64,000 nucleotides of DNA, from assembly GCF_036971445.1 (NCBI RefSeq), contig NC_091477.1, positions 120,590,001 to 120,654,000 on the forward strand, given 5' to 3'. Below are positions 1 through 59,129 of this stretch, in pieces. The notes beneath the pieces were generated by a model. The model saw nothing but the letters and a program-made list of their open reading frames with translations. It made no database searches and was not told the DNA's origin. Source of the DNA: Narcine bancroftii (Eukaryota). Each line of letters opens with the position of its first letter. Position 1 is the stretch's first letter. The position numbers were made by a program, and so were the translations under genes.

Positions 1-187
1 GGACCAGTTGGAGCCCTGGGTGCGCTGAACCATCATAATAGCCAATGTTCACAATGTCAAGTGTACCCTCCGAATTCGTTTGAAAGTTCACCAATTCGTA
101 TTTTGGCATTGGATCTCCGTTTTCATCAAAATACACGGTTTCTCCAGTCTTCACTGTGAAATTGACTATGCGTAGATAGTGGAGGAA
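1..187 (-). CDS. gene A exon 4 (partial)
   Basis: Acceptor tttccag| then FLHYLRIVNFTVKTGETVYFDENGDPMPKYELVNFQ; homologous to exon 4 of B and C. Confidence 0.88.
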
Positions 188-3100
188 CTGGAAAGTATAA
201 AGCAAGGTTTAGGCATTGCCGTGAGTTCAGCGCGAGGAGGTACAGGCGTTCAGCATCACTCTGCACGTCAAACATTGAAATAACTTGCAGGATAATTGCT
301 ACCTTAAGGGGCATATTAATGGGAGGTGACTCATCAATATTATATCCTGATGTATAACCTTGGGTCATATTTACTCGATGTGATCACGAGATGGGACAGT
401 TAAGAAGGCTGAATATGATTGATAGGCCGGCTGAGTTCAGGAGTAGAGGAGATCATGTCATAAAACCACACTTGAAGTACTGTGTTCAGTTCTGGTCATC
501 TTATTATAGGGAGGATGTGGAAGCTATGGAGAGGGTGCAGAGCAGATTTACCAGGATGTTGCCTGGGTTGGAAAACAAACCTTAAGAGGCAATGTTAGCA
601 GAGTTGGAATTTTTCTCTTTGGAGCGTAGAAGGATAAGAGGAAACTTGATGGCGGTCTACACAATTATGTAAGGCATACATAGGGTGGACAGCTACCACC
701 TGTTTCCCAGGGTACGAAGAGCAAACACCAGGGGTCACATGTACAAAGTTAAGGGAGGGAAGGCATCAGGGGTAAATTGTTTACACAGAGATGTCGGTCC
801 TTGGAATTACTTGTCATGGGTGGTGGTGCAGACTAGAATATTAGGTGTATTTCAGAGACTCTTTGACAGGCACATGGATGAAAAAAAAAGATAGAGGGTT
901 ATAGGTTAGGATTATGCTTAGTAATTGTATAAGCAATATAAGGGCCGAAGGCCATGTTCTGTGATGTCGTATTCTATGTTCAAAAATTAATCATTGTATT
1001 TTCAACTTGCTGTTTGCATGTTTCAAGTACCTGCCACGGCTCAAAATGTGAAATCTGTGCACATGTGTGATTCACAAAGGGTCCATTGCCTTCTTCACAA
1101 GTCAATAGGTCGTGGAGCGCATGAGCGATAGCGTAGATTGCCTTATACACCTGATATGAACTTCCGTCCATTATCGCCGGAAGGTAGGAGTTTTCCATTC
1201 CTTTCATTTCTTCTTTCCCCGTACATTGCCGAAATTCAACCGGAGAATTTTGTGGAATTATCCGGTTATCAGTGGTAAAGTTACATGTGAACAAAGTTTC
1301 CCAAAACTCTGTCAACAAACTGTTTGCAGCAAAATTCGAAGGATGGATATTATGAAGAAAATCTCTGAGTTCCGCGATCTCTGTCCTGTAGGTTATCGGA
1401 CCGATTGTCCCGGCGAGATAAATTGCACTTACTTCAGGCGGGAGAGGGTTTTCTGTAAGCCACCCTTCGCTTCCAATCCACTGTATTCCAGTTACATTTT
1501 GACGCCAAATTTCGTCCAGCAAAATCCGCATATCACCGCCAGGAGCAAAGGCCACCACCACTTTTGTGGACGCCTGTTTAATCACCTGGACAATTTTCCT
1601 GATTTTCTCCGCTGGGTCGGTCCTGTGAAATGACTCCGAATAGGCGATACAAACCCCAAACTTTTCCACGTGTTTCACAAATCCTTGCATTCCAAAATTG
1701 CCGTAATCGTTGTTACTTCTAATAGTTCCGATCCAAGTCCAGCCAAACACTCGCACCAGTTCCGCGAGAACTTTAGATTGGTACTCGTCGCTGGGTATCG
1801 TTCTTAAAAATGTAGGGTATTCCTGTTTATCGCTGAGACAGGAACAGGTGGAATAGGGACTGACCTGCACAGAAAGTGATAAATGTATGAATAGCTGTTC
1901 CTTCTTGCATTGGAAGTAACCGATATCGCTGGTTTCAATCTGAGTCATTTTATATTTCTACACCACGGAAGTATTGAACATGTAGAATATAAACGCCATT
2001 GTTCGAATATTTTGCACACATTTCACACATTGCTTCTCAACAAAAAAAAACTGATGGTTAATATTTCCTCTGTTCTTTGGCCATTTTCTGGTGGGTTTCA
2101 AATATTATCAAATTCCAAGCTGTAAAATGCATTTTATATCTTTGTAAAATATATGCCTGTCACCTAATTACTTTCTGGCCTAGAATTTTATTTTTTTGTT
2201 CGTACTAATATCAAAGGCACTTGAGAATCGTCACTATAATATCGCAGACTTATATTTGGTCTTTTACCAGTGGGACGCCGAAGGATCCGATTGTCCTTGA
2301 GGTCACGATGGAGCTTGTGGACCCATCACAGCCAACAATGGCAGCGACATTGGACGAGCTTCTACATTCCGGATATTCAGTCAATTCTTCTTCTCCGTTG
2401 ATCAAAGTGAGCGCTGCTTTCGAAGCAATCGCTGGGGACGAGCAGTCATCATGGATTTTATACCCGAGTGTGATCCCGGGGAGTAAATTTTCATCCTGGT
2501 TTATTTCTTCAATCGCAAAAATCATGGTCTGCGCCAAACGGAAGCTCACAATATTAACACTGCAATAAGAGCAAAATAAGGCAATAAAACAGTTCAAATT
2601 AATCGTTCCATGAAATAATACGTCGAACTATTTAAATTGTCTAATTTACTTATTATTTATACCAGAAGGACGCATCAACATCATAATCCGTTGAAGAAAA
2701 GTGGCTGCCCGCATCCACCCCTCCATGGCGCACTGTGGAAAGTAGAGAAGCTCCCACGAACGCAGAAAGCAGCTGCAAGATCCAACACAAGCTCTGACCT
2801 CCCATCTTTGTGTGACCATGAACGAACCTACCTCCCATGTTTCGGCTTTTTATCACGTCTTTCTCGCGAAAGGAGGAATAGAAGTCTGAAAACTGGCACT
2901 CGTGGGTTGTGCAATAGTTCTTTTTTCAGCTGGCATCAGACTCTTGAAATTTCCCTTGGTAGTCAACCACACGACTGTCTGTACCATTGCAAGTCATTTT
3001 TGCGCACGCAATACGGTGAACATTTATTGTTTATCTTATGTATTATTGTCTTTTTCTTTAATTAATTCAATTAGTGTATCGTTTTTTCTTTAACTGTTTG

Positions 3101-5422
3101 AAAGCAGCAGATACGAATTTCGGTGCACATGTAGATTATATTGAGTGTATGAAAATAAACTCATCGTTACCTCCGATGTCAATTTCAGCACTGGACACAG
3201 ACCTCTCTGCCGTTCCTCGATCTCATCCTTGAACTCGGCCCAACACACATACCTCCTCATCCTTTTACCCTCAGGTGCTCCGAAACCTGATCTCGGCTCC
3301 CGACCTATACTCGTTACTGATATTTCACCACCTCCAAGGTCAAGGCATAAAATAAGATCCATTCTTCACTGACCAGCATTGACCGGATACTGCAGCAGAT
3401 GACGGATGTGCAATGTTTATCCATATTCACCGCAATACATGACTGTCCTTGCAGGAGCACGTATCCGTGAATGGCAGTTCAGTGGTTAGGAAGCTCAGAG
3501 TGCACTCAAACATCAAAGATGACTCACGTTGGACGTTTTATGGTCTCTCTGTTATCACAGAAGTTTATTGACAGAGAAATGATCGGAACTAGCATTCAGA
3601 GGATTATTATACTTGTGACGACACTTGGCTTATGTCTACCCAAATATAGCAATTTAAAACATTACGCGTCTAACCCAATCCATCATAGTATAAATATATT
3701 GGGAAACCATCTAGTGACTTCCGCCAATATTTTGATGTTGTCATTCACATTGCATTAAATGCACGTGATATTATTACTGAGGACAAGAAGGGCTCCCGAC
3801 AGGTCTCGGGCGCTGAGGGGTTCCTGATTGTATCGGAAATTTCGATCCATCTCGGGTCTGTGTCGCTGCAGAGGCTGCAATCGCGCTGGAAACCAACTTG
3901 CTTCTTTTCCTCCGGCAATACTTATAGGGAATTTTTGTTTCTCTTGCCGTAGACAACAGATAGAGTATATCAAGTGTGTTACATTTTAATATATTATTAT
4001 AGGATCGTAAAATGAACCTTGAACCAGGAACATCATTACAGGAATGATCCAGAGAGGTAATTCATCAGGAATTTGCCTCGATTGGAGAACATGCCTTCTA
4101 AAGCAAGATTGGCAGAGCTATCATGCGAGGTAACTAAATTGAGGTGGATAAGATAATGAGGGGTTTAGATAGAATGGGCAGTAAGCATTTTTTCCAAAGC
4201 CCATCTGTTTGAGGGAAGTGGAGGAATTTTTAGGGGCGATGTCAAATGAAGGTTTTATTTTCAACCGAGGAATGAATTCCTGGAATGCAATGCCTGTCTT
4301 GGTGCAATATAAACATTCAAAAGGCACTTAGATATCAAAAAATGAGGATTGCTTGCAAGATTTAGGAAAGTATTGGATTGTTGTAAAGTAGATTTACATA
4401 GGTCAACAAAATATTGTGGACTGCGTCGTAATAGGAAATGTTCCATGATTTATCTGTCAGTGAAACAATTGGGCTACCTGTCGTAATAAGAATATATTAA
4501 ACATTCACTTAATAAAGAATATACAGACTTTCATATTTTTGGTTCGTGTCAGCACATAAGTGTTGTCGTGGCAACAGATCCAGAATAACTTTCGTTCTGT
4601 CATATACATTTGCCAAATAGTTGCCAGTTTACGTTTGTGGAAGATCCTGAGCGTAAGCACAGCCTTTTGAAAAAATGAAACAGGTTAATGGCCAGGAAGG
4701 TCGTGGGACGAAACCGGCCATTATAGATCCCTCTTTATTTTGGGCGACAGAATTTCCAATCAGACGTTGGGGCGCCACGACAAAATGCACAGTCAGCATT
4801 TTGTTTCACTCGATGCTCTGTGTTGGAAAGCTATATCGATACTCCATGCCTTGTTGCTTTGGTGTGAACTTATGATGAAGTAAGTAAACTTATCTATCAG
4901 TGTTCAAAGTTGTATTCGTTGTGTCACCGCAGTACACAAAAATGCTGGAGGCACTCTTGTTTGCTCTCATTGTTCCACTGTTTCCTGAAATGGAACAGTG
5001 GCAATAAAGTTGCACGATAACAACAAAGTATTTTTAATTTAATGTTAACATTTTAAAGTTTAAGTGAAGTGTTAAATGTAACAATAATAGTTAAAAGTCA
5101 AAAATAAAAATCGCGAACTTGTCTGGCAATCATTAACTCTATTTAAAAATCAATTCAATGTTTTCAGTAATTTCTACTGCCGAGCAAACAATGCCGGTTT
5201 ACAATGCAATCTTACTCGCCTTCTGCACTCAGTGCTTTTCGGAGTCAAGGCAAATGAGTGGAAGTGTTCAACTGGGTCTAAATGCAAAGTGAATATTCCA
5301 CCAAGAATGATGTCTCCATCCTTCTCGAAATCAGACAAATTGGCTTTAGCTCGACGTTTACAAACGATTCCATGCGTTTCCCAGGCAGCGAACAGCAGCA
5401 GGAGAACCAGAAACCGGGACAT
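1..5422 (-). CDS. V2R/OlfC-family class C GPCR, gene A (5' part; exons 5220-5422, 2268-2559, 1031-1864, <1-187; continues off the left edge)
   Basis: Signal peptide plus [25 protein letters not shown]...[30 protein letters not shown] and [11 protein letters not shown] Venus-flytrap motifs. Exon lengths of 203/292/834 match paralog B, and C except for its 828-nt exon 3. Intron 1 needs a GC donor to stay in frame. Confidence 0.9.
400..985 (+). mobile_element. CR1-type LINE 3' remnant in gene A intron 3
   Basis: PHLKYCVQFWS...MERVQSRFTRMLPGL, characteristic of the CR1 ORF2 C-terminus; contains stops. Confidence 0.75.
1031..1864 (-). CDS. gene A exon 3
   Basis: ctgtgcag|GTC acceptor, CAG|gtactt donor; 834 nt open (within ORF 980..1948). 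Confidence 0.93.
2268..2559 (-). CDS. gene A exon 2
   Basis: ttattgcag|T acceptor, CTG|gtaaaa donor; 292 nt. Confidence 0.93.
5220..5422 (-). CDS. gene A exon 1 (signal peptide)
   Basis: [14 protein letters not shown]...[10 protein letters not shown]...TECR; 203 nt; donor AG|gcgagt. Confidence 0.88.
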
Positions 5423-5478
5423 TGCTGTATTACAGGGGACCTGTCACGATTGTTCTGCAGTGAAGTGAAGAAATTGGA

Positions 5479-5484
5479 TTTATA
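5479..5484 (-). promoter_or_regulatory. putative TATA box, gene A
   Basis: TATAAA 57-62 nt upstream of the ATG, with identical spacing in A, B and C. Confidence 0.6.
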
Positions 5485-6760
5485 TTGTGTATATCAAGAT
5501 CTGAGTATCTCCCAGTGCGATTTACAAGCACAGCAAGTACTGAAATAATCATGAGGTAATATGTGCGGGACAGGTGTTTGATGATGTTGCATCCAGCTCA
5601 GGGCGAGATTATTTTTTATAGAGAATAAACATTACATCTGTTTTTCTTTTCATGCTGTTTACATTTTCCAGTGATACATGAAGATGTTCCAGGGACTATG
5701 CAGTGGCCGCACGTTCAATGATAACCACCAGAAATGTAATTGACTCACGGTCTCCGTCCCATCTACTTTCACGTCAAATGGCACATCAAATAATACGTGG
5801 GGGGAAATAATTCCATTTTAGAGAAACATGGGGCAACCTTCTCACTAAGATGGCAATACGTATCTGTAGCGAGCTGAAATTGCAGAAGCTGGTGCAAACA
5901 ACGTTCTGAAAACAGGTGAATATATTGGCAGATGTGACGGTCTTGATCGGAAATGGACATAATGCAGGCACATGAATTCCAACTTGGTCAGCATTGACGA
6001 AGGGCCTGTTATATGCTGTATAACTCGGTAATTCCAAATATTTCAACAATGGAGATATTGAATAACGTGCCTGCTCACAATTTTGATACTAATTCAACCT
6101 TGAAGTAAAGCGAACATTTCATTCGCCCTTATAATTACGATAATGAAGTGATTGAGTGATCGGCCACAGTTCACATTAACTCGAGCCTGCCAACCATTTT
6201 GATGTACTCCTGACATAACGCTGAAACAGGTCCTCCGCGGGTGCGATTTTTCCAGCCCCATGCCCAGCCCTGGAGCACCTGGAGAAGAAGAACAGCTATG
6301 CCAGCCTACTATTTATCGAGGACACCTCCACTCTTAGCAAAATTCTACCAATCAAATCCCCTAACCACGTGAATGTCGTCTCAGCAACCTTTCCATGGCC
6401 ATCCTTAATATTGAAACACCAGGGACTTGTGGCCTGGCGCCAGGAAACATACTTTCTCTCAAATGCAGGAAAAGAGCTGGTTATTGACTTCTGGAGGAGA
6501 AGTGGTCTCAACGAATGGTCCTGAAGTAGAGATAGTAACAGCTTTAACTTCCTTGAGATAACCATCTCCAATTAACTGGTCCATCCAAGTCAATGTAATG
6601 GGCATGAAAGCGCACGATAATATCTCCTACCGCAGAGGACTAAGGAAATCTGTCATGCTATCAGCATCTTTCTTGCAATTCCAACAGGTGCTGTCGGGGT
6701 GCATCACTGCGTAGGATTGGAATTATGCTGCCCAAGACTGCAATAATCTGGAAAGTGCTG

Positions 6761-6918
6761 NNNNNNNNNNNNNNNNNNNNNNNNNNNNNNNNNNNNNNNN
6801 NNNNNNNNNNNNNNNNNNNNNNNNNNNNNNNNNNNNNNNNNNNNNNNNNNNNNNNNNNNNNNNNNNNNNNNNNNNNNNNNNNNNNNNNNNNNNNNNNNNN
6901 NNNNNNNNNNNNNNNNNN
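6761..6918. other. assembly gap (158 N)
   Basis: Run of N. Confidence 1.
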
Positions 6919-9050: not shown

Positions 9051-9272
9051 TGAGTGTGTTGGGCCATGGATAGGTTTAATGCGTTATCACATAGTGAAGA
9101 CATGTGGGGTAGAAGCCATTCAAATGTGACATTCATTCAGAGGAAGTGAATAACGTACGCAGATCAGTATTTTTTTTAAAGGATAGTGTAGGAAAACCTA
9201 CAATACATGGGTTAATGTAGAATGGGGAAATATTTAATGGAATATGAAGTGTAATGTGTTCACACAGAGCAT

Positions 9273-10637
9273 GTGGGAAAAATGATGGAATCCATTATTA
9301 AGGATGTAATAGCGGAGCATATGACTAACAGAGAAGGGATCGGACGGAGTCAACATGGATTTACAAAAGGTAAATCGTGCTTGTCAAATCTATTGGAATT
9401 CTTTGAGATGGTGACAGGTAAAATAGATGGGGGAGAGCCAGTGGATGTGGTGTACCTGGACTTCCAAAAGGCCTTCGATAAGGTCCCGCATAAACGACTG
9501 GCTTACAAAATCAAGGCTCATGGGATTGGGGGCAAAGTATTGATGTGGATTGAGAACTGGCTAGTAGGTAGAAGACAGAGAGTTGGGATAAATGGCTCGT
9601 TTTCTGAGTGGCAGGCGGTGACCAGTGGGGTGCCACAGGGATCTGTACTGGGACCCCAGCTGTTGACAATTTACATTAATGATCTGGATGAGGGGATTGG
9701 ATGTCATATCTCCAAATTTGCAGATGACATTAAGCTAGGAGGGGTTGTGTGCACGGAAGAGGGGGTCAGGAAGCTCCAGTGTGATCTGGATAAATTGAGG
9801 GACTGGGCAGATCCATGGCAAATGCACTACAATGTGGATAAATGTGAGGTTATCCACTTTGGTAATACAAACCGGAGGGCAGATTACTATTTGAATGGCA
9901 ATAGATTAAGAGATGGGGAAGTGCAGAGAGACCTAGGGGTACTTGTACACCAGTCTCTGAAAGAGAGCATGCAGGTACAGCAGGCGGTTAAAAAGGCAAA
10001 TGGTATGTTGGCCTTCATATCAAGAGGAACAAGGATACCTTACTGCAGCTGTACAGGGCCTTGGTGAGATCCCACCTGGAGTATTGTGTGCAGTTTTGGT
10101 CACCTTATCTAAGGAAGGATGTTCTTGCAGTGGAGGGAGTGCAGAGGTGATTCACCAGGCTGATACCTGGAATGGCAGGAATGACATGAGGAAAGATGGC
10201 GCAAATTGGGATTGTACTTGCTGGCGTTTAGAAGATTGAGAGGGGATCTCATAGAGACATATAAAATTCTGGCAGGACTGGACAGAATGGATGCAGATGG
10301 GATGTTTCCAAGGATGGGAAAATCCCGAACCTGGGGCCATGGTTTGAGGATAATAGGCAAACCGTTTAGGACCGAGATGAGGAGGAATTTCTTGACCCAG
10401 AGGGTGGTGAATCTGTGGAATTCATTGTCACAGAGGGCAGTAGAGGTAGGTTCATTAAATATATTTAAGAGGGAATTAGATCTATTTCTTCAGTATAAGG
10501 GAATTAAAAGTTACAGAGAGAAGGCGGGGACGGGGTACTGAACTTTAAGATCAGCCATGATCTCGTTGAATGGTGGAGCAGGCTCAAAGGGTCGAATGAC
10601 CTACTCCTGCTCCTATCTTCTATGTTTCTATGTTTCT
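9273..10637 (+). mobile_element. CR1 LINE, 5'-truncated, RT domain plus 3' tail
   Basis: ORF 9273..10067 has QHGF, YLDFQKAFDKV, GVPQGSVLGP and FADD RT motifs; small deletions frameshift the C-terminus; (ctatgttt) tail. Confidence 0.9.
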
Positions 10638-12598: not shown

Positions 12599-12659
12599 CT
12601 ACTCACAAGAGAACCCAATGAAAGCAGAAAGAACCCATGGCGAATTAATTCCCTTAAAT

Positions 12660-13289: not shown

Positions 13290-14197
13290 TTATGGTGAAG
13301 TTCCTTTGCCCATCATGTGTTTCTTCGTGTTATTCTGCGGCTTCACTACAATAATGTAACATTTGGGTGCGAAAATACAGGCCAACAAACCAAAGCTTGA
13401 GGCCCAGATAGCAAACACTTCCACGGCCACCGTGTACTTCCCTGGAGAACTCACATAAGCTGGAATGAACGTGATCCAAACCGCGCAGAAGATCAACATG
13501 CTGAAGGTGATGTACTTGGCGTCATTGAAGTTGTCTGGAAGTTTCCGGGCAAGGAAAGCGAGAACTAAACACACAATGGACAAAAGAGCAATATAGGCCG
13601 ATACCAAGTAAAAGGCCGTTAATGACCCCACGTCGCATTCCAGAATAATGATGTCTCGATAATAGCTCATGTTTTTCAGGGGATGGGGAGGTGACACACT
13701 TAGCCAGACAACGCAAACTAAAGCCTGCAGAAATGTCAGGATACACACGCCCAGCCGTTGCTGAGCGGGTCCAAACCAGTTCATCACGCTCCTGTTGGGA
13801 AGAGTTGCTTTAAAGGCCACCACAACTAGAATGGTTTTGCCCAAAATGCAGGAAATGCAGAGAACGAAAACAACTCCGAAAACAGTGCGACGCAACCTGC
13901 AAGACCAGTCGGAGGGTTCCCCAATGAAGCTGAGCGAGCAAATGAAGCAAAGCATGAGAGCGAAGAGAAGGAGGAAGCTGAGCTCGGAGTTGTTCGCTTT
14001 CACCATGGGAGTTTCCCGGTAACGGTAGAAAATAGCAGCGGTGGCCAAGGTGAAGCAGACTCCCACTAGAGCGAGCGTCACCAACACAAACCCCAGAACT
14101 TCTCCAAAGGAAAGGAACTCCACCTTCTTGCGAACACATCGGGTTTTCTGTTGATTTGACCAGTATTCCGAGGGACATTTCATGCAATCTGTGGAAT
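13290..14197 (-). CDS. gene B exon 6 (7TM)
   Basis: cttattcag|AT acceptor; open to the TAA at 13290. Confidence 0.95.
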
Positions 14198-17100
14198 CTG
14201 AATAAGGAAATCCAATGTGAAACTCCAAATATTCGTGAGCACAGAATATGAAATTCCGGAGGCCCCGTGCAATACAGTTACATACTTGCACAGCAGGAAA
14301 GTGGACATTTTGGCGCACCATGTGGCACTGCTGAGGAAGCCGGCAGCGCAATGCAAGGACAAAGTGGCCATGCTCCGGATTCGTACCCGGATCATCTCGA
14401 AGGACTTTGTATGCGTGTATGGGTAGGGTTTCCCCGGATCGGATTTCATCCCACCCTTCAAAATGCACGAAAGTTGGAGGAGGTTGGAGGTTAATTTAGT
14501 CCATTTTGGAAGCATGAGCTTGTGTGCTGTTACCCTGCTGTACATGAATTTTAACACAAACATTTTTCCAATCTCCTCTATATTAATGGACTCACCTGTG
14601 ATGTTGCTAATCTCACCATCGGCACATTCTGCACAGTCAAAACAACATGTCGGTTGCCCTTTCAGACTCACTTTCCTTGTTCCGGGAAGACAGGGTTCTG
14701 AGCAAATTGCTCGTGGGATCTAAAGCAAAACGACACCAAATGCCTATTTTATCATATCCACGTGATGAAACATAGGAAAATCTGTTCCGTTTTTCCCAAT
14801 ACTCATGTTATCCCAGACTCCCAAATTATTCTTCAGATTTTTATTGTTTAATTCACATCAAGGCTCTTCTCTTTGTGGGCCATGTCTAGCAGTTCTCACG
14901 GTCATACAGTCGAAATGTAGACCGGTCTGGGCTGAATGACGCTATCCACTCACACAGGTCTTTTTTTTCAATATTCTTTAGAACCTCCGCACTCAATATA
15001 TTCAACCATTGAACCACACACTGGGACAATGTGGGCATTCTGAACTCCAACGAATAAAAATATAATCCATTCACACTACGCTTGCACAGAAATTGGTGTA
15101 TTCGACAATCGGTATTAACTGCCTCCATCTACCATGTTGTCCTTATTGGCCAGAAAAAGTCCACGGTAAAGCGGCATACCTTATATCTGTTCGTACTCCA
15201 CATGATATCTCCAAAATTCATTACCAGCTCGTGACCTGGCAGAGCTGAGCCTTCATAATAGCCAATATTCACAATGTCAATTGTACCCTCTGAATTTGTT
15301 TGCAGGTTCACCAATTCGTATCTTGGCACTGGATCACCGTTTTCATCAAAATGTACGATTTCTCCAGTCTTCGCTGTGAAATTAACGAGGCGTAGGTAGT
15401 GGAGCAGCTGGGAAAGAATAAAGCACAGAAGGGGAGAAGTTAGCAGTGACGTTGATTCGGAATGCGGAGGTACAGACGTTGAACTTCTCTATACACCCAA
15501 ATTATTTAAATATTCTATAGGATAATTGTCACCTGGAGTAATATGTTGATCTTGGAGGCGCCCCATCAATATAATGTACATATATCTAGCGGTGGGTCAG
15601 GGATGAAGATACTGGCCTTGGTTAACTCGATATCATCACTGAATGAAAATCACTATTTAAGACCCAAGACAAAAACCTCGAACCGTACAGCACGGAAACG
15701 GGTGCTTCCATCCTTCTAGTCTGTACAGGTCAACTTTTCTGCCTAGTCCTACTGGCCTGCACCAGGTCCATAGCCCTCCATACCTCTCTTATCCATGTAC
15801 TTCTACATTGTGTGTCAGTTTCCTGTAGAACATTTGAATACTTTGGGTGTACAGTTTTCATTTTAGATCTCCCCATCTCTTTTGGCTCTTTAAATAGCTG
15901 TCCACTCTGATTTTCAAGGGGACCAATTTTGTCCCTTGCTATCCTTTTGCTCTTACTATACCTGCAGAATCCATTGGGATTTTCCTTCACATTGCATACA
16001 AAAGGAACCTTGTGTCTTATTTTAGATGTTTTGATTTCTTTCTTGGGTTTCTTCTTGCATTTTATACTCCTCATGTACCTCATTTTCTCCATGTTGCCTA
16101 CTATTCACCACTCTCTTCTTCTGAACCAGATCCCCAATCTACCTGACAGGAATATACAAGTGCTTTACTCTCAACATTGTGGTCTCCCACTTAGTCCTCA
16201 TGTCATCACTTGAAAACAATTGTTCAAGTCCATGCATTCTAGGTCCTCTCTTATTTCATCACAATTGCCTTTCTCCAATTTACAAACTCAACCCGAGGAC
16301 CAGAACTATCCTTCTCCATAATGACATTTTGATCATTGGACCCAAAAGGTTCCCCAACACACTTCTATCACCAGTCCTGTCTCGTTACGCAATAGGAGAT
16401 CCATTATTGTATTCTCTCTGGTTGGGAGGCCTCTATGTATTGATTCAGAAAACTTTCCTGAATGCATTTGACAAACTCCAAGCCATCCAGTCCTTTTATG
16501 GTATGGGAGTCAATATATGGACAGTTAAAATGCCCTGCTATCACGACCTATGTTTCCTTCAGTTCTGTTCTATCTCTACATATTTGCTTCTTAAATTTTC
16601 ATTAACTATTGTGTGGTCATACCTTTCCTTTTCCTCTGCTCCACCCATTTAGCCTCAGTAGAGGCAGCTACTTGTCTGTCCCATCTGATAACAGCTGTAT
16701 ATTTTCCCTGAGGAGCAATGCTACTCCTTCCCCTTTCATCCCCGCCCTCTGCTCTCTTGTGTCTGAAGTAATTGAAGCCCAGAACATTGAGCTGCCAGTC
16801 CTGCTCCTCCTTCAAACGTTTCACGAATGGCCACAAGGTCATAATTCCACGTGTCAATCCACGTTCTAAAATCGCCTGCCTTTTCTGCAGTACTTCTTGC
16901 ATTGAAATAGATGCACCTGAGAACAATTCCACCACGTACAACCTTTGACTTCTAACATTACAAATAATTTCCACCTGTCTTTTATTTCCTGCACCCTTTA
17001 TCCATCTGGCACTCTGGTCCTCACCAGGAGAATTATGTTTGAATCCGATAACCCACCCTCCACCCCCATCCCCCAGCAGTACTATCAAATCTTCCCGCAA

Positions 17101-26100: not shown

Positions 26101-29100
26101 TGAAATTTTGGAAGACAATGTTAAAATTAATGCATCTTTGAATAATCAGGCTTTACTGTCTTTAAAGGGTGCAGAAGTTAAAGATTTAGATAATTTTGCT
26201 TTTTTATTACAGTCATGGAAGTTAAATAGGTATTGCAAGCAATGCTTGATGGGAAATCCCCAGATGAAGATGGTTTTACTTCTGAATTTTATTAAGAGTT
26301 TCAGGATTTGTTGCTTCCTGTATTAATGGATGTTTTGAAACTGGCCATTGAGAGTGGTTCTTTTCTAGATTCTTTTTCTAAAGCATTGATTACAGTTATT
26401 CCCAAGAAAGATAGAGACCCATTAAAAGTAGGGTCTTATAGACTTCTTTCTTTATTGAATGTGGGTTATAAGATAGTAGTCAAGGGTTTGGCTAATAGAT
26501 TAGCTAAATATTTACTGGAGCTGATTCATGTAGATTTTTAATTTTAATAGGCTGGGTTTATTAAGAATCGGTATTCTGTGGATAATATTGTGAAGTTAAT
26601 TTCTCTGATTAATGTTTCTCAAGACCAACCCGACCAACTTATGATAGTTGCCTTAGATGCTGAGAAGGCTTTCAATAGAGTGGAATGGGGTTTTCTATTT
26701 AAAGTACTGGAATTTTTTTAATTTATTGGTTGGGTGAAGGGTTTATATAAAAACCCATCAAATAGGGTGGTGACAAATGGGAAAATAGCTCCTTCATTTA
26801 TATTATCTAGATCAACTAGACAGGGGTTTCCTTTTTCACCAGCTTTGTTTGCATTGGTGATAGATCTGTTGGCTCAAATGATTAGGCAGAATGGCAGTAT
26901 TAAAGGTGTATGTAGATGAATATAAAATAAATCTATTTGCAGATGATATTTTAATATATCTAACACATCCTATGCAATCACTGGGGTATCTTCAAGCATG
27001 GTTGGAACAATATGGTAGGTTGTCAGGTTATAAAGTTAATTGGGATAAGAATGAAATAATGCCTTTAGAAATGGAAGATTATTCAGCTTGTCAGCAGGTT
27101 ACAAAATTTAGGTGGTCTGATAAAATTAAATACCTGGAAATAATTGTTCATGAATACAATCATTTATATGATCTGAATTATTTGCCATTATTGACTAAAA
27201 TGAAATATGATTTAAATCAATGGAAAGGTTTGCCAATAATTTTGATAAGGTGAGTAAGTTGTATTAAAATGATAATTTTCCTTGTATACAGTAACTTTTT
27301 CAATAAATTCCGTGTACAATTCTGAAAAAAGTTATTTAAAGATTTGAATGTATTAGTGAGGACGTTTTTGTGGAAAAGCAATTTAGCGAGGGTGTCATTA
27401 CAAAAACTGACATGGAAATATGCTTTTGGAGGATTGCAGTTACCTTATTTTCAAAACTATTATGATGTGGTGCAATTAAAATTTATTAATAGAATATTTG
27501 AAATAGATCAACCTTTGGCATGGGCTAAAATTGAAATGGCTCAGATTCATGAACAAAGAATGGATCAATTAATTTATAAATGGAACCCTCAACTTTTTCA
27601 AAATTAAAATTTACCTGTGTTCTGGCATGAGAAAAAACATATTATAGGGACTGAAAGAAGAAGTTCAGCTAAAACTCTTTTGTATTAGAATAAATTGTTT
27701 TCCTTTTCAATGAGTAATCAACTTTTGAAATTATGGGAACAGAGAGGTATTAAATTGATGGAATATTGTTGTGAAGCTGGGTATTTTGTTTCATTTCATA
27801 GACTGAAGGAAAAAATATGGAATTTCTTCGAAAACGTTATTTACTTATTACCAGATTTGAGCCTTGCTGCTAGATAAATTTGGATGCAGCTTAAGGTTAA
27901 CTAGACTTGAAAATTTACTTGCCAAAAGTGGTGAAATATGGTTTATCTCAGATATGTATGGTTTATTGTATCATCAAATGTTTAAACCAGATGTTTATAA
28001 AACAAGTATTAAATGGAAGAAGGACTTGTCTATTTCAATTTCTCAGGATGATTGGATAACTCTATGTGAAGAGAGCATGACTAAAATAAATAATGTAAGA
28101 TATAGATTAGTCCATTATAACTTTATTCATCAGGTTTATTTAACTCCCGAGAAGTTAAGGAAATATGGACTTTGTTCTTTAGATTTGTGTTTTCGATTAG
28201 GTAAACAGGTTGGGTCTTTTTTTACATTCAGTATGGCTCTGTGAGACATTGAGGCCTTTTTGGAATAGAATTATGGAATCTTTGGAAAGTTTGTTCCAAT
28301 TTAAGCTTTCACGTGATCCTTTAGTATTTTTATTGGGATATATTAAGAAACTCGGTTTGGAATTAAAATTAGATAAGTTTCATATTGCATTTATTGGATT
28401 AGCATTGGCTGTGGTGAGAAAATGTTTAGCTATTACTTGAAAGAATGAAATTGAGTTGAGTATTCAAATATGGCACATGGAGATGTGATCCTGTATTCCA
28501 CTAGAAAAGATAACTTATAATTTATGTAATAATTATTCATTTTTTTGTTAAGATGTGGAGCACTTATATGAAATATATGGCTTTAAATATATAGTAGAAT
28601 TTTTTCCCCAGGTTGAGATGGCACCTAACATGGCGACGGTTTGATTATTATATGTATTAACTCCTTTTCTTTCTTTCTCTCCTTCTTTGGGGTATGTATA
28701 AGTTGAGGGGAGAGGTGATGGGTGGGGACTGGGAGGAACTTAGGGGAGAACATTATGTATATTTGCATTCTTTACTTGATTGCATGCCTTATTTTGAATA
28801 ATAAATAAAATGTACCAAAAAAAGCAAATTGGGATTCGGGAGGGTTCTGAGGGCAAGAAGGCTCCCAAAGGTTTTCGGGCACTAAGGGCTTCCTCGTCGT
28901 GTGGAACATGTGCTTCTGGAGCTCTCGTTGCCGATGGGGCGAACGGGAGTCGCTCAGGCTGCAGAGTTTGCAAAATCACTGGAGGCGAATGTAGGGACAA
29001 TCCGCGTCTCTGAATGAACTCTCTCTTGTTTCTTTCTCGACAATGCTAATGGCGACTCTGTTTGCCTTGCAGTTGTCAACAGTTGAAGTATATCATGCAT

Positions 29101-30559
29101 ATTACATTTTAATGAATTATTACGGGACAATAGAAGTAACCTTGGATTTTGAACTTCATTACAGAAAGGATGCAGGTGCTTCAGAGAGGATGCAGAGGAG
29201 ATTCATCAGGATGTGCCCTGATTAGAGTGCATGTCTTATGAAGCAAAGTTTCAAAGATTGGCTTTTCTCTTTGGAGCAGGTGACTTAACAGTGGTGTACA
29301 AGATCATGAGGGGCTTAGAGAGAGTAGATAACCAGCACCTCTTTTCAGAGCACACCTGTTTGAACGGGGAGATATCATGTGTAGGGTTTTATTCACACAG
29401 AGAGTGGTGGGTGCCTGGAATATTCACAGGGCACCTAGATGGGAACATGGATTTAGAAAAAGTAGGATAATTGAAATGAGATAACGATGGATTAGATTTT
29501 TAGAGAATAGGTTTAATAGGTCAGGACAACGGGGTTGGCTGAAGGGCCTGCGCGTTGCCGTATGCTCGAAGTTCTATGATTAATTTGTTAATGGTTTAAG
29601 AGTATATCCCCCTTAAAAGATACATCATATAGTTCCACTTAATAAAGAATATGCAGACTTTAATATATTTGTTTAGTCTCATCAGATACATGATGTTATG
29701 GCAACAGATCTGGAATGGATTCATACTGTAATATCTATTTGACAAACAGATGTCAATTTATATTTGTGGAAGAGAGCGTAAAATGGTTCTGAGGGTAATC
29801 ACAAATTTTGGAAAAATAAACAAAAGAAAGGGTGAAATGGGCAGGAAGATCACGGGACTAAACCGACAGGGTTTACATACAAAACACATATAACGTATCC
29901 TTTTTCTGAAGACAGAATTTCCAATCAGACGTTGGGCGCCTCGAGAAAATGCTTCACTAGATGCTGTGTGTTGGAAATCTACATCAATGGTTTGGTTGCT
30001 TTGGTGCGGAATCATGATGAAGTAATTGTATTCATTGCGTTCAGAATTGTATTCATTGTGTCTCAAAAGTGCACACAAATGCTGGTGGCACTCATGTGCT
30101 TTCATTATGCCACTATTTCCTGAAAGGAAACCGTTTCCGAATAAACAACAAATGTATTTTAACTTAATATCAACGTTTTAAAGCTGAAGCAAAATGTTAA
30201 ATTTAATATTCTGTAACAATGGTGCTTAACTGACAAAGGTAACAGTGAGCAACGTTGCCAAACAATCATTAACTCTCTGTTTAAAAATCAATTCGATGTG
30301 TCTCAGCAATTTCTACACTATAGAAAAACATGCCGGTTTACAAGGGGTGGACTCACCTTCTGCACACTGTTCTTTTCGGGGTAAATGCAAATGAATGGAA
30401 GTTTTGAACCATATCCATATGCACATTAAATATTCCACCAAGAATGATGTCTCCATCCTTTTCTAAATCCGACAAATTGGCTTTAGCTCGACGCTTACAA
30501 ACGATTCTTTGCGTTTCATCTGCAGTGAACAGCAAAAGCAGAACTAGAAACCGAATCAT
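13290..30559 (-). CDS. V2R/OlfC-family class C GPCR, gene B, complete (exons 30357-30559, 21518-21809, 17848-18681, 15180-15407, 14596-14719, 13290-14197; about 862 aa)
   Basis: All six exons have canonical GT-AG sites and sum to 2589 nt in frame. Venus flytrap, cysteine-rich domain (CCFDCAEC) and 7TM ([27 protein letters not shown]) are present. Confidence 0.93.
14310..14550 (+). mobile_element. degenerate tRNA-derived SINE in gene B intron 5
   Basis: Shares the gggtttcccc...tcccacccttcaaaa core with the SINE at 46866-47100. Confidence 0.5.
14596..14719 (-). CDS. gene B exon 5
   Basis: [16 protein letters not shown]...[17 protein letters not shown]; 124 nt; GT-AG. Confidence 0.93.
15180..15407 (-). 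CDS. gene B exon 4
   Basis: [16 protein letters not shown]...[11 protein letters not shown]; 228 nt; GT-AG. Confidence 0.93.
15680..17340 (-). mobile_element. CR1-type LINE remnant in gene B intron 3
   Basis: Degenerate ORF2 fragments (DWQLNVLGF; NVKENPNGF...[10 protein letters not shown]). Confidence 0.65.
17848..18681 (-). CDS. gene B exon 3
   Basis: tctctgcag|GTC ... CAG|gtattg; 834 nt open. Confidence 0.94.
18713..21228 (+). mobile_element. L1-clade LINE ORF2 internal fragment (degenerate) in gene B intron 2
   Basis: YSRIDF and SDHSP endonuclease motifs, LDAEK, RQGCPLS and LFADD RT motifs; many stops; no 3' tail. Confidence 0.85.
21518..21809 (-). CDS. gene B exon 2
   Basis: cttcag|T ... 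CTG|gtaatg; 292 nt. Confidence 0.94.
24533..24992 (+). mobile_element. CR1 3' remnant
   Basis: [12 protein letters not shown]...[13 protein letters not shown]. Confidence 0.7.
24993..28823 (+). mobile_element. L1-clade LINE, near-complete degenerate ORF2 plus 3' UTR and A tail, in gene B intron 1
   Basis: [27 protein letters not shown] and LFADD motifs plus the C-terminal HSVWLC; AATAAA and an A-rich end. Confidence 0.88.
30357..30559 (-). CDS. gene B exon 1
   Basis: [11 protein letters not shown]...[10 protein letters not shown]; 203 nt; AG|gtgagt. Confidence 0.93.
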
Positions 30560-32060: not shown

Positions 32061-32069
32061 TTGCAACTT

Positions 32070-35419: not shown

Positions 35420-35983
35420 TTATGGTGAAGTTCATTTGCCCATCATGTATTTCTTTGTGTTATTTTGCACTAAAATAATGTAATATTTGGGTGCAAAAAT
35501 ACAGACCAACAAACCAAAGCTTGAGACCCAGATAGAAAACACTTCCACGGCCACCGTGTTCTCCCTGGAGAACTCGCATAAGTTGGAATAAAAGTGCTGA
35601 AGGTGATGTACTTGGCGTCGTTGAAATTATCTGGAAGTTTCCGGGAAAGGAAACCGAGAACTAAACACACCGTAGATAAAAGAGCAATAGAGGCCGATAC
35701 CAAGTAAAAGGCCGTTAATGACCCCACGTCACATTCCAGAATAATGATGTCTCGATAATAGCTCATGTTTTTCAGGGGATGGGGAGGTGGCACACTTAGC
35801 CAGACAACGCAAATTGAAACTTGCAAAAATGTCAGGATACATACACACACCCAGCCGTTTATCACGCTCCTGTTGGGAAGAGTTGCTTTAAAGGCAACCA
35901 CAACAAGAATGGTTTTGCCCAAAATGCAAGAAATACAGAGAACTAAAACAACTCCGAAAACAGTGCGACGCAACCTGCAAGAC
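35420..35983 (-). pseudogene. V2R/OlfC exon-6 remnant (copy D), 5'-truncated
   Basis: Homologous to B 13290-13905. Lesions are a deletion of about 22 nt (NWFGPAQQ region), a 27-nt deletion in TM6, a 1-nt frameshift after SSPG and a 9-nt deletion near the C-terminus. No upstream exons. Confidence 0.9.
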
Positions 35984-39481: not shown

Positions 39482-39487
39482 TATAAA
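39482..39487 (+). promoter_or_regulatory. putative TATA box, gene C
   Basis: TATAAA 57-62 nt upstream of the ATG at 39544. Confidence 0.6.
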
Positions 39488-39543
39488 TTCAGGTTCTTCC
39501 CTTTAAAGTGTAACGATAGTGACAGGTCCCCTGCAATAGAACA

Positions 39544-39746
39544 ATGCCTTGGTTTCTGGTTCTCCTGTTGCTGGCCGCGACGCGAGAAACACGCGAAATC
39601 GTCTGTAGGCGTCGAGCAAAAGTCAGTTTGTCTGATTTAGCCAAGGATGGGGATATCATTCTTGGAGGAATATTTACGGTGCACATGGATCCGATTCTAG
39701 ACTTCCCTTCGTTCGCTTTTCCTCCGAAAAGCACTGGGTGCAGAAG
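39544..39746 (+). CDS. gene C exon 1
   Basis: [12 protein letters not shown]...; 203 nt; AG|gtgggt. Confidence 0.93.
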
Positions 39747-42700
39747 GTGGGTCCACCTCTTGGAGGCAGGCATTTGGTCGCTATTCGGAACAATGTTGTC
39801 ATCCTTTGGTTTGATATTTGAATTCGAGAGTTAATTATCGTCTGACCACTGTTATCTCTATTTTCCTTTCCTGCCTCTGTAACAATACATTTAACATCGT
39901 ACTTCCACGGAAAAAATGTTGAAATAAACTTTGCTATTCAGCTACTTTATGTCAAATTTGAAAAGAAACTTGACAAATCGAATGCACGTTTGAACGGAGT
40001 GGTATTTACTGTATGTTGTAGTAAGGTACCATCAATGGCCGATTTAAATTTCCATGTCAGATAGTTCAGTAATACGTAATGATACCTTGTGGGCATTTTC
40101 TCTGGGGATCTTCTGGGCAAATTAACTACATTCTTTCGTTTTGTAAGACTGTGGGGATGGACTCTCCAGAGCGGGAGTCTGTGACCGATTCTGACATGAG
40201 GGTTTTTGCAATGAATTCATTCAGAGCTGCGAAATGTAAATAGAAATGGCTGATTTTCGTGCTCTCCCACTAAATCTAAATTGAACTTTTTTGGAAGGGG
40301 AGGGAAATTAAATCATGAATGATATCCAGGCTCCGTTGCCATGGCATTATATGCTAATACCGAATAAGAAAGGAAAGACTATTGTCTTCTCTGATGAACT
40401 GGGAAACATCTCATCTTCTCCCTGCGCTGCAATGACAATGTGGCATTAAGAATCTCAGTACGTGTCTGACCTTGTTGACAAAGCTTCCCTCGATTTCCTG
40501 AAGATATATCTTTCTTGAAATACTCGGAAACTGAATCTACCCTGCTCTCGTGATCTGAAAATTCTATCCTTCTTGATACTCTATCCCTCTTGTGTGAAAA
40601 AAAATCGTTCCTTTCAGAAATACACGACCTACATTTCAAGTGCAAACCAAGCGAAGATCCAAACTAATTCAGGCTTGCTCGATACCTGCTGGAGAACCAT
40701 CTTTATTTTTAAAATAATTAATCATTCTGACTAATAATTATGTCCTTTTCTCATATATATAATTTATATTAGCATTTCGCCTTCCACTTTAATTGGCAGG
40801 TAAGGTAACTTTTATTACCATTGATAGGAGTGTAGTGGAAACGTACAGCAGAGAAACGGATCTGTCGGCCCACGGTGTCTATTATCTCCGTGGATCCGTT
40901 TGAAATGCCAGGCCCGGACACCGTGGCCGTTTTAACGCGATCATTCTATCTGCTTAATGTTATTCGCCCTCTGCGACGGAGCAGATTGTCCTTCTATGGC
41001 CTTGGATTTGAACATTATTGTATGCTATTAATCTGAAGGCTCGCTAAAGCGCACGTCGCTATTTGTGGTTATGGTTTAATGTAAATAACATCGTCAATGT
41101 TGCCTGAATGACGACATCTAAATAATGAGAAAATAGCTGGAAATGGCTTGATGTGTTTATATTATAATTTATTGGGTGTGCAAGACATCTAAAGCAACAA
41201 CATTTGGTACATATGATCTTCAGGCAATATCATCTGAATTCCGCTCATTCTTTTGTCACTAAACTGACTTGAGTGATCACTGAGGGACCTCAAAATGCTC
41301 AATGCCTCGGGTAACACTTTGACCTCCTCGTTACCATCGGAGGATCGCTGCACTTGCGAGATCGACGACGATTTCTGGGAATGGTGGGAGCTCGTCCAGA
41401 TCCCTGGTGCGGGGAACGCCGTTTGCTGTTGGGACGGATTACCTTGGAGGCCTTGAGCTAGGAGGTGGTGAAATATCAACAAGTGCGGGTCCAGAGTCGA
41501 GGACAGAGTTGGGTGCAGGTGGAGAGGTTTGTGCCCAGAGCTGAAACCTGATGCTGGAACATATTAGGGCCGGGGAGCTGGAAGCCATTGATCCTGAGTG
41601 ACACATACGTTTCCTTTTCTATCGACGAGGTATGTAAAATTAATTGCGCGAATAATCAGGACTTGCTGTGGTTTTTGGATGATCCTTTGCGAACGATAAC
41701 TTTTTTACATTTCAATGTATGATTGAATTCCTAACTTTCAGTTTTTATCACATACTTATCCGCAGTATTAACTTTTCGAGCTTCCGAGTAGCGCAAACCA
41801 TGATTTTTGCCATTGAAGAAATAAACCAGAATGAAAATCTACTTCCTGGGATCTCCCTCGGGTACAAGATCCACGACGACTGCTCGTCTTCCGCGATCGC
41901 TTCGAAAGCAGCGCTCACTTTAACCAATGGAGGAGAGGAACTGATTGAATACCCAGAATGTAGAGGCTCCTCCAACGTCGCTGCCATCGTGGGTTGTGAT
42001 ATATCCACAAACTCCATCGTCACCGCAAACACGATCGGATCCTTTGGAATCCCGATGGTAATGGGCCAGATATTTGATTGTAATGTTATGATAACGACAT
42101 TCAACTCGCTTCAGATTCCTTCTTTAGCACAGACATGAACACACATGGTCCGGGCTGTGAGTTGGGGGGTGTGCCATAATTGGTGGTGGTCGTAAGATCG
42201 TAATTCAAAGAGCTCGGGTAATTACCACAATTCATATCCAGCAGAAGCGTGGAAAGATGTTAGTTGTAAAATTGACGTAATTCTGCAAAATAATCTCAGA
42301 ATTCCCGTTCCCTTCTCAATGCTGAATACTTGCTGTTGTGTACAAGGATCAAATATTTCACTTTGAAATGGTAGCGACGTCTCTGTCATTTTCAGTGCAA
42401 GCCTGAGCAAGGTACTCATGTAGTTAACATTTCCTCTGCAGGTTAGTCACTTCTCCACCTGCTCCTGTCTGAGCGATAAGCAGGAATACCCTACGTTCTT
42501 CAGAACGATACCCAGTGACGAACACCAGTCCAGAATTCTCGCAGAACTCGTGCGAGCCTTCGGCTGGTCTTGGATCGGAACCCTTAGAAGTAACACCGAA
42601 TACGGCAATTTTGGAATGCAGGGATTTGTGGAGCACGTGGAAAAGTTTGGGGTTTGTATCGCCTACTCGGAATCATTTTACAGGACCGACCCAGCGGAGA

Positions 42701-45700
42701 AAATCAGGAAAATTGTCCAGGTGATTAAACAGGCGTCCACAAAAGTGGTGGTGGCGTTTCTTGATATTGGTGATATGCGAGTTTTATTGAACGAAATTTG
42801 GCGTCAAAACGTAACGGGTATACAGTGGATTGGAAGCGAGGGCTGGATTACAGGAAACCTTCTGCCGCCTCAAGTAGAAGGAAGGTATATCACCGGGACT
42901 ATCGGGCTGGCAACTCATAGGACAGAGATCGCCGAACTCAGAAATTTCCTTCATAATGTCCATCCTTCCAATTTTCCTGGAAACCGTTTGGTGACAGAGT
43001 TTTGGGAAACTTTATTTACATGTTATTTTACCATTGACAACATAACAGGAAATTCTCCAGTTCCATTTCGGCAGTGCACAGGGAAGGAACAGATGGAAGG
43101 GATAGAAAACTCCTACCTTCCAGCGATAATGGACGGAAGTTCTTACCACGTGTATAAAGCGGTCTACGCTATCGCTCATGCGCTCCACGACCTGTTAACC
43201 TGTGAAGAAGGCAACGGGCCCTTTGCGAATCACACATGTGCACAGATTTCAAACTTTGAGCCTTGGCAGGTAGGAAATCCTACACCTATTTTGTTACCCA
43301 ATCGGCAATGATAAAAGTTTGGACCTTATCTTGTGACATTTGCATTCACCTTGTATATGTTTTTGTGGTGATCGAAATTTTATTTTCAGACTTTACATTT
43401 TATTTTAAAATAAAATTTTATTTTAGAAGGTCAATATTTTAGTCTGTGAAGTGTGGGAAATGGGGCCCCTAATTTGCAGAGATAAGGACTCCCCCGATTA
43501 CCTTGTGATTTTCATTTTGATTAACTGCATTGGGCAACAGCCGAAGGATAATGTTAGACGGGAACTGGTAGAACATTCCAGCTTTCGGAATGATCGAGTG
43601 TGGGGGGTTCGTTTCTCATTTTTGCAGAGCACCATCTAACAGACGGAAACCCTACGGGGCAGTACTCGCTCCGGCTTGCTGTGGAGCGGCAGAGAGCTCA
43701 AGTATATCCTCCCCAGCCTGTGGTTCAGTGGTGATGCCCAGTGAACCGCGGCGTCTATTTTAATACTTGACCCATCTTCAGAAATACTGAAGAGGCGTCT
43801 CAATATGTCTCGCCACAAGGCGTTCAAACTGGGTGGACAGTGACATCGAGCCCACGGCAGGGCTAAAGGTTAACCTTCCTTCCTTCCTTCCTCCCCAGCT
43901 GCTCCACTACATGCGTTTCGTCAATTTCACAGCGAAGACGGGAGAAAATATTTATTTTGATGCAAATGGTGATCCAGTGCCAAGATACGAATTCGTGAAC
44001 TTGCAAACTAATTCGGAGGGTAGAGTGGACATTGTGAACATTGGATATTATGATGGGTCAGCTCCGCCAGGGCGCGAACTGGCAATGAACACGGGGGATA
44101 TAGTGTGGAGCGGGAATGCAAATAAGGTATGCCTTTTTTTTCACCGTGGATTTATATCGGGGAAGTGGAAAATAATGGGATTAGGGTGATATGGTGGATG
44201 TTGTCATTTCTTACCGAATCCTCTGATTTGACCAATTTAAAGTGCACTCTCCCCAGTTTTCCTTCTTGGAGTTCAGAAAAAATAGGGACCACCATCTTCA
44301 AATGTGAGAGACCCTAAGAGACCTTGACAGGGTAGATGTTGAGATTGTTTCACCAGTTTGAACGTGTCGAACGAGAAGATTTTTTTAAAGATCAATGATT
44401 AAGACTAAACAATGTGTAATTTCTCGCCTGAGAGTCTCGAGAATTTATGCTAGATCGTTAGATACATGAATTCGTAGAAAGATCAAGGAATTGACAGTCA
44501 TGCAGAACTACCATAGAAGCGGAGTTGAGGAGGCACAGATTTTATATTTCAGTTTATTATCATACATGACTTCACTTACAACCGCTGGATCCTTTATTCT
44601 GGGGGCGAGGCAGAATTGCCACTTATTGCTAGTGCGAAAAAAAAACTATACACCCCATATACATATAAACAAATAAATAAATGTCAATAGATAAGAAATG
44701 TAGACGAAGCGAACTGTGCAATGCAGAGAGAGAGAGAAAATCACTAAGCGCACAAGCAAGAGTCCTTAAATGAGTCCCTGATTGAGTTTGTCGTTGATGA
44801 ATCTGACGATGGAGGGGTAGCAGCTATTCCTGAACCTGGTGGAGTGAGTCGTGTGGCAGCAGCCAGAACGGAGTGGAGATCCTTGATAATTACTGCTGCT
44901 CTACAACGGCAGCGTTCCCTGTAGATGTTCTCGATGGTGGGGAGGGTTTTACCTGTTATGTCCTGGGTTGTGACCACTACTGTGGAAAGAATATTAACTT
45001 GTTGCAACATGGCTTTGTTTGTCTGCCTAAAGTAACAAACAAAGACAAATCCATCTCTGGCACTTGCCTCCCATCCACTGAAAGCATCAATCTGAGACGC
45101 TGCCTGAAAAAGGAAGCCAACAGCATAAGGGGGCTCCCATCAACCTAGTCGCAGCTCTTGCTGCTGTTCCATTCAGGCAGAAGGTATAGAAGCCAGAGGT
45201 CCAGCACTTTCAGGTTCAAGAATATGTTTTTTTTTTTATCTAACAGCTCCCAGGATGAGACCAACAGATCATCAGAAATGTCTTCATTCTTCTATGCAAG
45301 TTGAAGGGAAACACTTCGTATTTTATCTGGGAGCCCTTCAACCAGATAGCACCAACATTGACCTTTCCAGTTTTCTATTAGCATCCCACCCCATGTCTCC
45401 TTTCCCCCCTGTCTATCTGCCTCTCTATTCCCTTTACCCCCTGCATCCTTTATCCCAGCTCTGCATTCGCAGAGATATTCCTCTTGTCCCTAACATTCCA
45501 ACATTTCCTCTACCCTGGCCTCTTCTCCATATCCAATTATCAGCTTTTTTCTGTAGTTTGCCTTCCTCCCTCTGTCGTTTATTTTATTCATCCATTGCAT
45601 GCATGAAGAAATGTCCAGGGCCGAATCATCTGTAATATATCTTTATCTCTCATGGACGCTGCGAGACCAGCTGAGTTCCTCCTGCATTTCTGTTTTTACT

Positions 45701-59110: not shown

Positions 59111-59129
59111 CAAGTTGGCCTGAGGGAGC

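Follow-up and report, generated by a model that had tools for sequence, protein, structure and literature searches.

A CpG-retaining domain over a V2R receptor gene array of Narcine bancroftii, a probable region of low germline methylation

The CpG content of a 64,000-nucleotide stretch of the Narcine bancroftii genome (NC_091477.1; C21:120,590,001–120,654,000 of the 3.33-Gb genome; "the window" below), which holds part of an array of V2R/OlfC receptor genes (array 1), was analysed, with 200 kb added on each side to establish extent. Methylated CpG deaminates to TpG or CpA, and only germline events are inherited. Most of the window belongs to a sharply bounded domain over the array in which CpG is retained. 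The germline hypomethylation suggested by the initial annotation of this DNA, which like ours was deduced from sequence, fits the composition, the substitution spectrum between paralogs and the fate of old short interspersed element (SINE)-like and Rex1-like copies. The V2R-array domain is thus probably a long-lived region of low germline methylation, similar to a broad non-methylated island.

Without masking, the CpG observed/expected ratio (o/e) was 0.63 over positions 1–45,000 (per-kb span 0.16–0.99) and 0.37 over 45,001–64,000; with repeats and exons masked, the values were 0.67 and 0.22. The repeat mask was obtained by blastn against only ~0.8 Mb of outside sequence, so that low-copy repeats may persist unmasked. 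In unique sequence the maximum-likelihood change point was at 44,528 (2-log-unit interval 44,438–45,262), with 28 CpG/kb to the left and 9.5 CpG/kb to the right; in unmasked sequence it was smeared to 47–53 kb because young CpG-rich repeats sit right of the edge. The change point falls ~0.4 kb inside intron 4 (44,127–49,172) of V2R/OlfC gene C (39,544–50,370, plus strand; six exons with GT-AG junctions), at a decayed fragment resembling a long interspersed element (LINE; 44,561–44,980). It separates the right-hand part of the CpG-retaining domain (1–44,528, GC 41%) from ordinary CpG-depleted DNA (45,263–64,000), where the CpG peaks are young repeats. Gene C straddles the edge, with exons 1–4 inside the domain and exons 5–6 outside. 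In 5-kb bins, adjacent ones of which are not independent, the median o/e was 0.66 inside (n = 36) and 0.29 in the flanks (n = 81), with 1/36 bins below 0.5 inside and 1/81 at or above 0.5 outside; the TpG+CpA o/e was 1.18 inside vs 1.28 outside. The CpG o/e did not depend on the distance to repeats (0.61–0.66 inside, 0.29–0.32 outside), and repeat density, or spreading from repeats, was rejected as a cause on this ground.

The step near 45 kb that had been noticed by eye was in this way recovered by computation. The earlier local counts were also reproduced: 39.6 CpG/kb (o/e 0.94) at 3000–4010 and 32.3 (0.86) at 39,840–41,200, vs 8.0, 5.4, 4.5 and 6.5 CpG/kb at 50,400–51,400, 54,000–56,600, 58,000–59,100 and 61,700–64,000 (o/e 0.12–0.24), all six stretches having 36–41% GC. 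These stretches were hand-picked, however, and the size of the step was overstated. The description of an AT-rich domain without CpG depletion has to be dropped: o/e inside is about 0.65, not 1, and the GC content is practically equal across the edge (0.407 inside, 0.416 outside). The region is indeed not a classical CpG island, for which the thresholds are a GC content over 50% and an o/e over 0.6, since no 1-kb bin in 1–45,000 exceeds 46% GC. Overall, the composition step is real, and CpG depletion inside the domain is lessened, not absent.

A step in composition could also stem from the assembly, through a join error around 45 kb or the inclusion of foreign DNA, and an assembly gap of 200 N is present in a hole of the domain left of the window. 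Gene C, however, crosses the edge with canonical splice sites, the host's own repeats are present inside the domain, and short-read contigs show 0–4 differences and equal depth on both sides (about 6–7 in run X1, 10–11 in X2), one contig of 810 bases (43,970–44,779; X1 and X2) bridging the change point. The runs may come from the assembled individual, so that the contig match is not independent. An artefact is hardly credible.

The domain is considerably longer than the 45 kb first proposed. Two degenerate V2R copies mark its start, about 101–103 kb to the left of the window, and its full length is about 147 kb, with eleven V2R copies or fragments. This length includes a 24-kb hole, 68–44 kb left of the window (C21:120.522–120.546 Mb), of low-complexity, CpG-poor and GC-richer sequence; the hole, which divides the domain of array 1, contains a 30-bp minisatellite and the 200-N gap. 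A second V2R array (array 2; C21:119.927–119.992 Mb), 0.5 Mb from the first, has four genes and its own 65-kb CpG-retaining domain; in the transmembrane exon the two arrays are about 62–66% identical. Masked o/e was 0.62–0.67 in the blocks of array 1, 0.66 in array 2, 0.22–0.33 in the flanks and 0.23–0.44 in nine inter-array tiles. No CpG retention was seen at four single V2R genes nearby, two of them 34–71 kb right of the window and two flanking array 2. The two that flank array 2 are paralogs outside its domain and lie 88 kb from each other; their transmembrane exons share 97.8% identity and their exons 2 about 65%. Over the genome, 40 spaced 10-kb tiles had a mean masked o/e of 0.30, with 2/40 above 0.5; one random tile (C16:10.00–10.01 Mb) contained at least 7 kb at o/e 0.7–1.2. 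Somatic CpG methylation in a chimaera is about 70% (PMC5437953), and a CpG-depleted background is therefore as expected. The repeat fraction was 0.30 inside the domain vs 0.365 outside, and 0–2% in compact Hox tiles.

The edges of the domains could be localised to about 1 kb and lie 2–4 kb upstream of the first gene, or 5–10 kb into the last gene. A mild o/e peak follows exon 1 (0.77 vs 0.50–0.57 far away). Using CpG as a proxy, more than 90% of the gene is covered in 10/11 full-length array genes, and about 46% in gene C. Pure promoter islands were rejected as an explanation, the peak after exon 1 being only mild and the single V2R genes having no zone; a chromosome-end effect was rejected because flanks and tiles nearer the end are at background or modest levels.

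For array 1 the mean identity of aligned non-coding sequence between paralogs is 0.75, and for array 2 it is 0.80. The odds ratio of transitions at CpG relative to other C/G sites, determined from syntenic non-coding paralog alignments after low-complexity matches had been filtered out, was 2.6 (2.1–3.5) in array 1 and 1.7 (1.3–2.2) in array 2. Repeat pairs outside (2,500 sampled) gave 8.35 (7.65–9.11) at 60–80% identity, 4.4 at 80–90% and 2.9 at 90–97%; a CD300-like array gave 4.9, 3.9, 3.4 and 1.7 in the same bins, the last at 97–100%. For the outside V2R pair the ratio was 5.0 (19/36 vs 28/265). At synonymous sites of exons 2–3 it was 1.1–1.6; exon 6 of array 2 gave 0.4. Private CpG transitions were found at 37/960 CpG sites vs 133/4774 other C/G sites in array-1 exons inside the domain; exon 6 of gene C, outside it, has more private CpG transitions (7/64 vs 2/436). 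In a simple simulation, a CpG multiplier of 2 yielded an o/e of 0.70 and an odds ratio of 2.1–2.3, a multiplier of 3 an o/e of 0.54, and one of 6 an o/e of 0.31; a multiplier of 2–2.5 reproduces both quantities inside, and one of about 6 reproduces the flanks. The match of o/e and odds ratio implies a domain near equilibrium rather than a decaying one, and the substitution test rules out CpG-rich DNA decaying at the background rate.

The same data bear on a history in which a single CpG-rich unit was multiplied, or brought in from elsewhere, too recently for its CpGs to have decayed. In a gene tree built from this genome's genes only, the array 1 genes form one clade and 3/4 array 2 genes another, which speaks for such a history, and young duplications in apes are reported to be CpG-rich (PMC13308097). 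Intron divergence, however, is ~25%, at which the simulated odds ratio under the background rate is about 19, not 2–2.6; later SINE insertions are spared too; and the label "inside" needs at least two changes on both trees. Recent copying is very unlikely. Restoration of CpG by GC-biased gene conversion between paralogs, in a normally methylated region, was weighed next to it. The transmembrane exons are homogenised (92–97% identical), and third-position divergence is 0.08 there vs 0.25 in exons 2–3. The introns, however, carry the signal while remaining unhomogenised (0.75 in array 1, 0.80 in array 2). Neither GC nor GC at third codon positions is raised inside (the latter 0.48–0.57 vs 0.55–0.62 outside), private GC>AT changes (170) exceed AT>GC changes (135), and the outside pair H0/H5, with its 97.8%-identical exon, is CpG-depleted. 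The option of a conversion-maintained domain, which had been left standing beside hypomethylation, is rejected for non-coding DNA by the depletion of this converted pair and by the introns, which are 72–82% identical in 20/21 paralog pairs; as a general account, conversion is highly improbable. With paralog introns only ~75–80% identical, neither recent copying nor conversion explains the domain.

Repeat insertions served as reporters of the local CpG fate. Among copies 4–20% diverged, the 16 inside the domain keep 0.615 of the CpG sites of their family; label permutation stratified by family and age, with 194 copies from outside, gave 0.449±0.050 (p = 0.0012). SINE-like and Rex1-like copies account for this signal, having kept 36/52 CpG sites (69%) inside vs 386/1180 (33%) outside. 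The statement that old repeats in the cluster keep their CpG thus holds for these two groups but not for CR1 and L1/Tx1-like copies. A methylated region in which selection, or more effective repair of deaminated 5-methylcytosine, preserves the CpGs would be in keeping with the equal decay of young RTE copies inside and outside, which fits methylation being present. The effect, however, does not vary across about 100 kb of introns and spacers with little conservation and is also seen in old SINEs, and beyond the mild peak (0.58–0.71) it shows no dependence on the distance from exon 1; selection or repair is quite unlikely as the cause.

Several observations count against low germline methylation of the domain as a whole. 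Young RTE copies kept CpG equally inside and outside (213/244 vs 1150/1321 sites, with 27/244 vs 161/1321 lost), which is the main evidence counter to a simple model in which nothing here is methylated. No inside excess was found for CR1 copies (3/13 vs 30/111 kept) or Tx1 copies (1/5 vs 13/38). These results suggest that certain insertions either acquire methylation individually or were already CpG-depleted on arrival, which is an extra assumption. The SINE and Rex1 sample inside is small (8 copies). Among the substitution data, the paralog pairs are not independent, and at ~25% divergence the odds ratio is in part a restatement of composition; near-identical outside controls (97–100%) are also low (1.9 for repeats, 1.7 for the CD300-like array), and the pooled pairwise odds ratio for exon 6 in array 1 is 2.9. 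In exon 6 of gene C, non-CpG private changes are raised as well (12/332 vs 14/2315), and the interaction is not significant (p = 0.14).

Low methylation may have more than one cause. The arrays could be closed, late-replicating heterochromatin that is poorly reached by maintenance methylation (a partially methylated domain of the CDCA7/HELLS-dependent type) and not actively protected. This explanation also predicts low germline methylation; it is the main rival as to cause, and most of the probability that we assign to it is contained in that for low methylation. Partial retention (0.65) and the tolerance of repeats inside the domain agree with it. Mice mutant for Cdca7 show a loss of methylation and a gain of H3K27me3, over as much as 217 kb, at Pcdh, olfactory and vomeronasal clusters (PMC10857554), and mouse male germ-cell domains over duplicated families, termed LoDs, carry H3K9me2 (PMC3859323). 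The edges seen here, however, are sharp to about 1 kb, lying close to the end of the last gene or 2–4 kb ahead of the first, and background levels prevail in the neighbouring single V2R genes, the nine inter-array tiles and both Pcdh flanks. Partially methylated domains are, moreover, usually much larger. We consider the heterochromatin explanation unlikely, though the strongest of the alternatives.

With low germline methylation, CpG inside the domain would mutate ~2x as fast as other cytosines rather than ~6x, and the methylation would amount, very approximately, to between a fifth and a quarter of the background excess. Protection of an array gene would extend from about 3–4 kb before exon 1 to 5–10 kb past exon 1, the zones of adjacent genes fusing across the array; in gene C the last gene's zone would run out, and so form the edge, within a repeat-expanded intron (5.0 kb vs about 0.5–1.3 kb in seven paralogs). 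The edge positions and the mild peak after exon 1 favour such gene-anchored, merging zones over inaccessible heterochromatin. If methylation is low, the protecting chromatin may, by analogy, be of the Polycomb/TET type found at Hox clusters; we regard this as a reasonable guess that falls somewhat short of probable.

Besides gene C, the window contains V2R/OlfC gene A (1–5422, minus strand; exons 1–4 at about 5219–5422, 2268–2550, 1031–1864 and 1–188), located by tblastn, which places exons 5–6 left of the window. Gene B (13,296–30,559, minus strand) has six exons, at about 30,356–30,559, 21,518–21,802, 17,848–18,681, 15,181–15,408, 14,595–14,719 and 13,296–14,198, and a broken V2R transmembrane-exon fragment lies at 35,435–35,982 (minus strand). 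Six exons are the rule for V2R/OlfC genes, and Pfam ANF_receptor and 7tm_3 matches were over the cut-off in 5/5 exons scanned. At a distance of 84 kb from the first V2R here there is an M13 peptidase exon, which from its motif may be neprilysin. The transmembrane exons of array 1 (13,296–14,198 and 49,465–50,370 in the window, and paralogs leftward) are 92–97% identical and the ligand-binding exons are diverged; judged by sequence identity, this pattern is exon-specific gene conversion. The transmembrane exon of gene C, outside the domain, is the most divergent array 1 copy. Among the repeats, an old LINE piece in gene B (18,942–21,221, plus strand), AT-rich and CpG-poor, is presumably L1/Tx1-like from its open reading frame motifs; an L1/Tx1-like LINE, likewise old, within intron 1 of gene B (25,087–28,563, plus strand) forms the main CpG dip within the domain. 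A CR1-like LINE piece (9255–10,637, minus strand) is CpG-poor (o/e 0.30) despite its position inside the domain. Outside, CpG peaks arise from young RTE-like LINE sequence: a 3' piece at 45,988–46,544 (minus strand) and further pieces at 52,818–53,251 and 60,316–61,689.

Comparison loci were sampled with 1–14 tiles each (masked o/e unless noted), family labels beyond the Pfam match being our own reading. Four compact Hox clusters (4 tiles) had an o/e of 0.71–0.95 at 36% GC, and a dispersed homeobox cluster (C24:59.97–60.34 Mb; 2 tiles) one of 0.74–0.75; the latter is possibly an expanded HoxC, which a stingray preprint discusses. A clustered Pcdh array with about 45 variable exons (C21:4.72–5.31 Mb; 5 tiles) had 0.44–0.76, and its flanks 0.22. 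A V-segment array (C11:205.15–206.9 Mb, left edge between 205.11 and 205.15 Mb), which we read as putatively T-cell receptor (TCR) alpha/delta-like, had 0.57–0.89 (given as 0.55–0.9 over at least 1.7 Mb of sampled tiles), heptamer-23-nonamer signals on its segments and a CpG transition odds ratio of 1.4. CpG retention is thus not, as had been tentatively proposed, specific to the receptor cluster in the window, the second V2R array, the Pcdh array, the V-segment array and the Hox clusters being alike. Values were lower in the CD300-like array (0.27–0.53, unmasked), a PRY/SPRY region (0.38–0.42), NLR duplicates (0.24–0.25), a triplet of class C G-protein-coupled receptor (GPCR) genes (0.19), MHC I (0.38) and a single olfactory receptor (0.42; one found). 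The notion that all tandem arrays retain CpG was rejected by the CpG-poor CD300-like array and NLR duplicates. At C11:220.37–221.54 Mb, six NACHT-domain copies with identical scores are CpG-depleted; they are either recent duplicates or uncollapsed haplotypes. Immunoglobulin-domain loci were mixed (0.65 unmasked at C5:139.9, 0.55 at C8:289.2, 0.41 on C12, 0.28 at C11:207.7).

Of the gene-choice arrays sampled, 4/4 retain CpG; five other multi-copy or immune loci (CD300-like, PRY/SPRY, NLR, class C GPCR triplet, MHC I) do not, and the four further immunoglobulin-domain loci span 0.28–0.65. It is conceivable, if doubtful, that V2R, clustered protocadherin and TCR V-segment arrays are inherited as whole-array low-methylation domains in cartilaginous fish, in a chromatin state for gene choice that they share, that may be ancestral and that is readable from CpG content alone. 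Cartilaginous fish smell mainly via V2Rs, and in the catshark the neurons that express main-clade V2Rs are sparse (PMC10116579). A germline low-methylation domain with sharp bounds and restricted to expanded arrays would, if true, provide a sequence-visible handle on the set-up of receptor choice. Broad non-methylated domains would then reach beyond developmental regulators to arrays of chemoreceptors and antigen receptors; mutation-rate models for V2R array genes would be affected.

A literature search, outside which lay supplements and most subscription papers, yielded no account of V2R arrays in fish that retain CpG or are hypomethylated; skate fin methylomes exist (PMC10115646). The neprilysin-linked V2R/OlfC cluster of cartilaginous fish (10.1101/2025.06.08.657570) likewise consists of class C GPCR genes in tandem, with an M13 peptidase gene next to them; in the available text of that preprint CpG is mentioned twice, both times for a centromere and not for the V2R array. 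The CDCA7-dependent clusters (PMC10857554) involve the same kinds of array (Pcdh, vomeronasal, olfactory), affected as blocks, but represent a somatic state of mutant mice, whereas here a wild-type germline state is proposed. The CpG reservoirs or CHEDs of apes (Son et al. 2026 preprint, PMC13308097) are CpG-rich duplications linked to low sperm methylation; these are described as transient and young, whereas the V2R domain has been kept through ~25% intron divergence and, contrary to such reservoirs, the recently duplicated CD300-like array and the NLR duplicates are CpG-poor here. The LoDs of mouse male germ cells (Ikeda et al. 2013, PMC3859323) are hypomethylated domains of 10 kb–9 Mb over duplicated families, a description that covers the domains of about 147 kb and 65 kb over the V2R arrays. 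They mostly concern X-linked, testis-expressed families, and the words "vomeronasal", "olfactory" and "Vmn" are absent from the main text of that report; the V2R duplicates are old and the evidence for them is mutational. The broad non-methylated islands of Long et al. (2013, PMC3583005), of which Hox clusters are known examples, were described for developmental transcription-factor genes with H3K27me3/H3K4me3, whereas the genes of the domain encode class C GPCRs. Unlike the Hox islands, the V2R domain is repeat-rich and retains CpG partially (0.65 vs 0.71–0.95). As in those islands, whole genes and clusters appear, by the CpG proxy, to be covered, and the fish-type pattern of a high CpG o/e (0.66 vs 0.29) at the GC content of the surroundings is found in the V2R domain as well.

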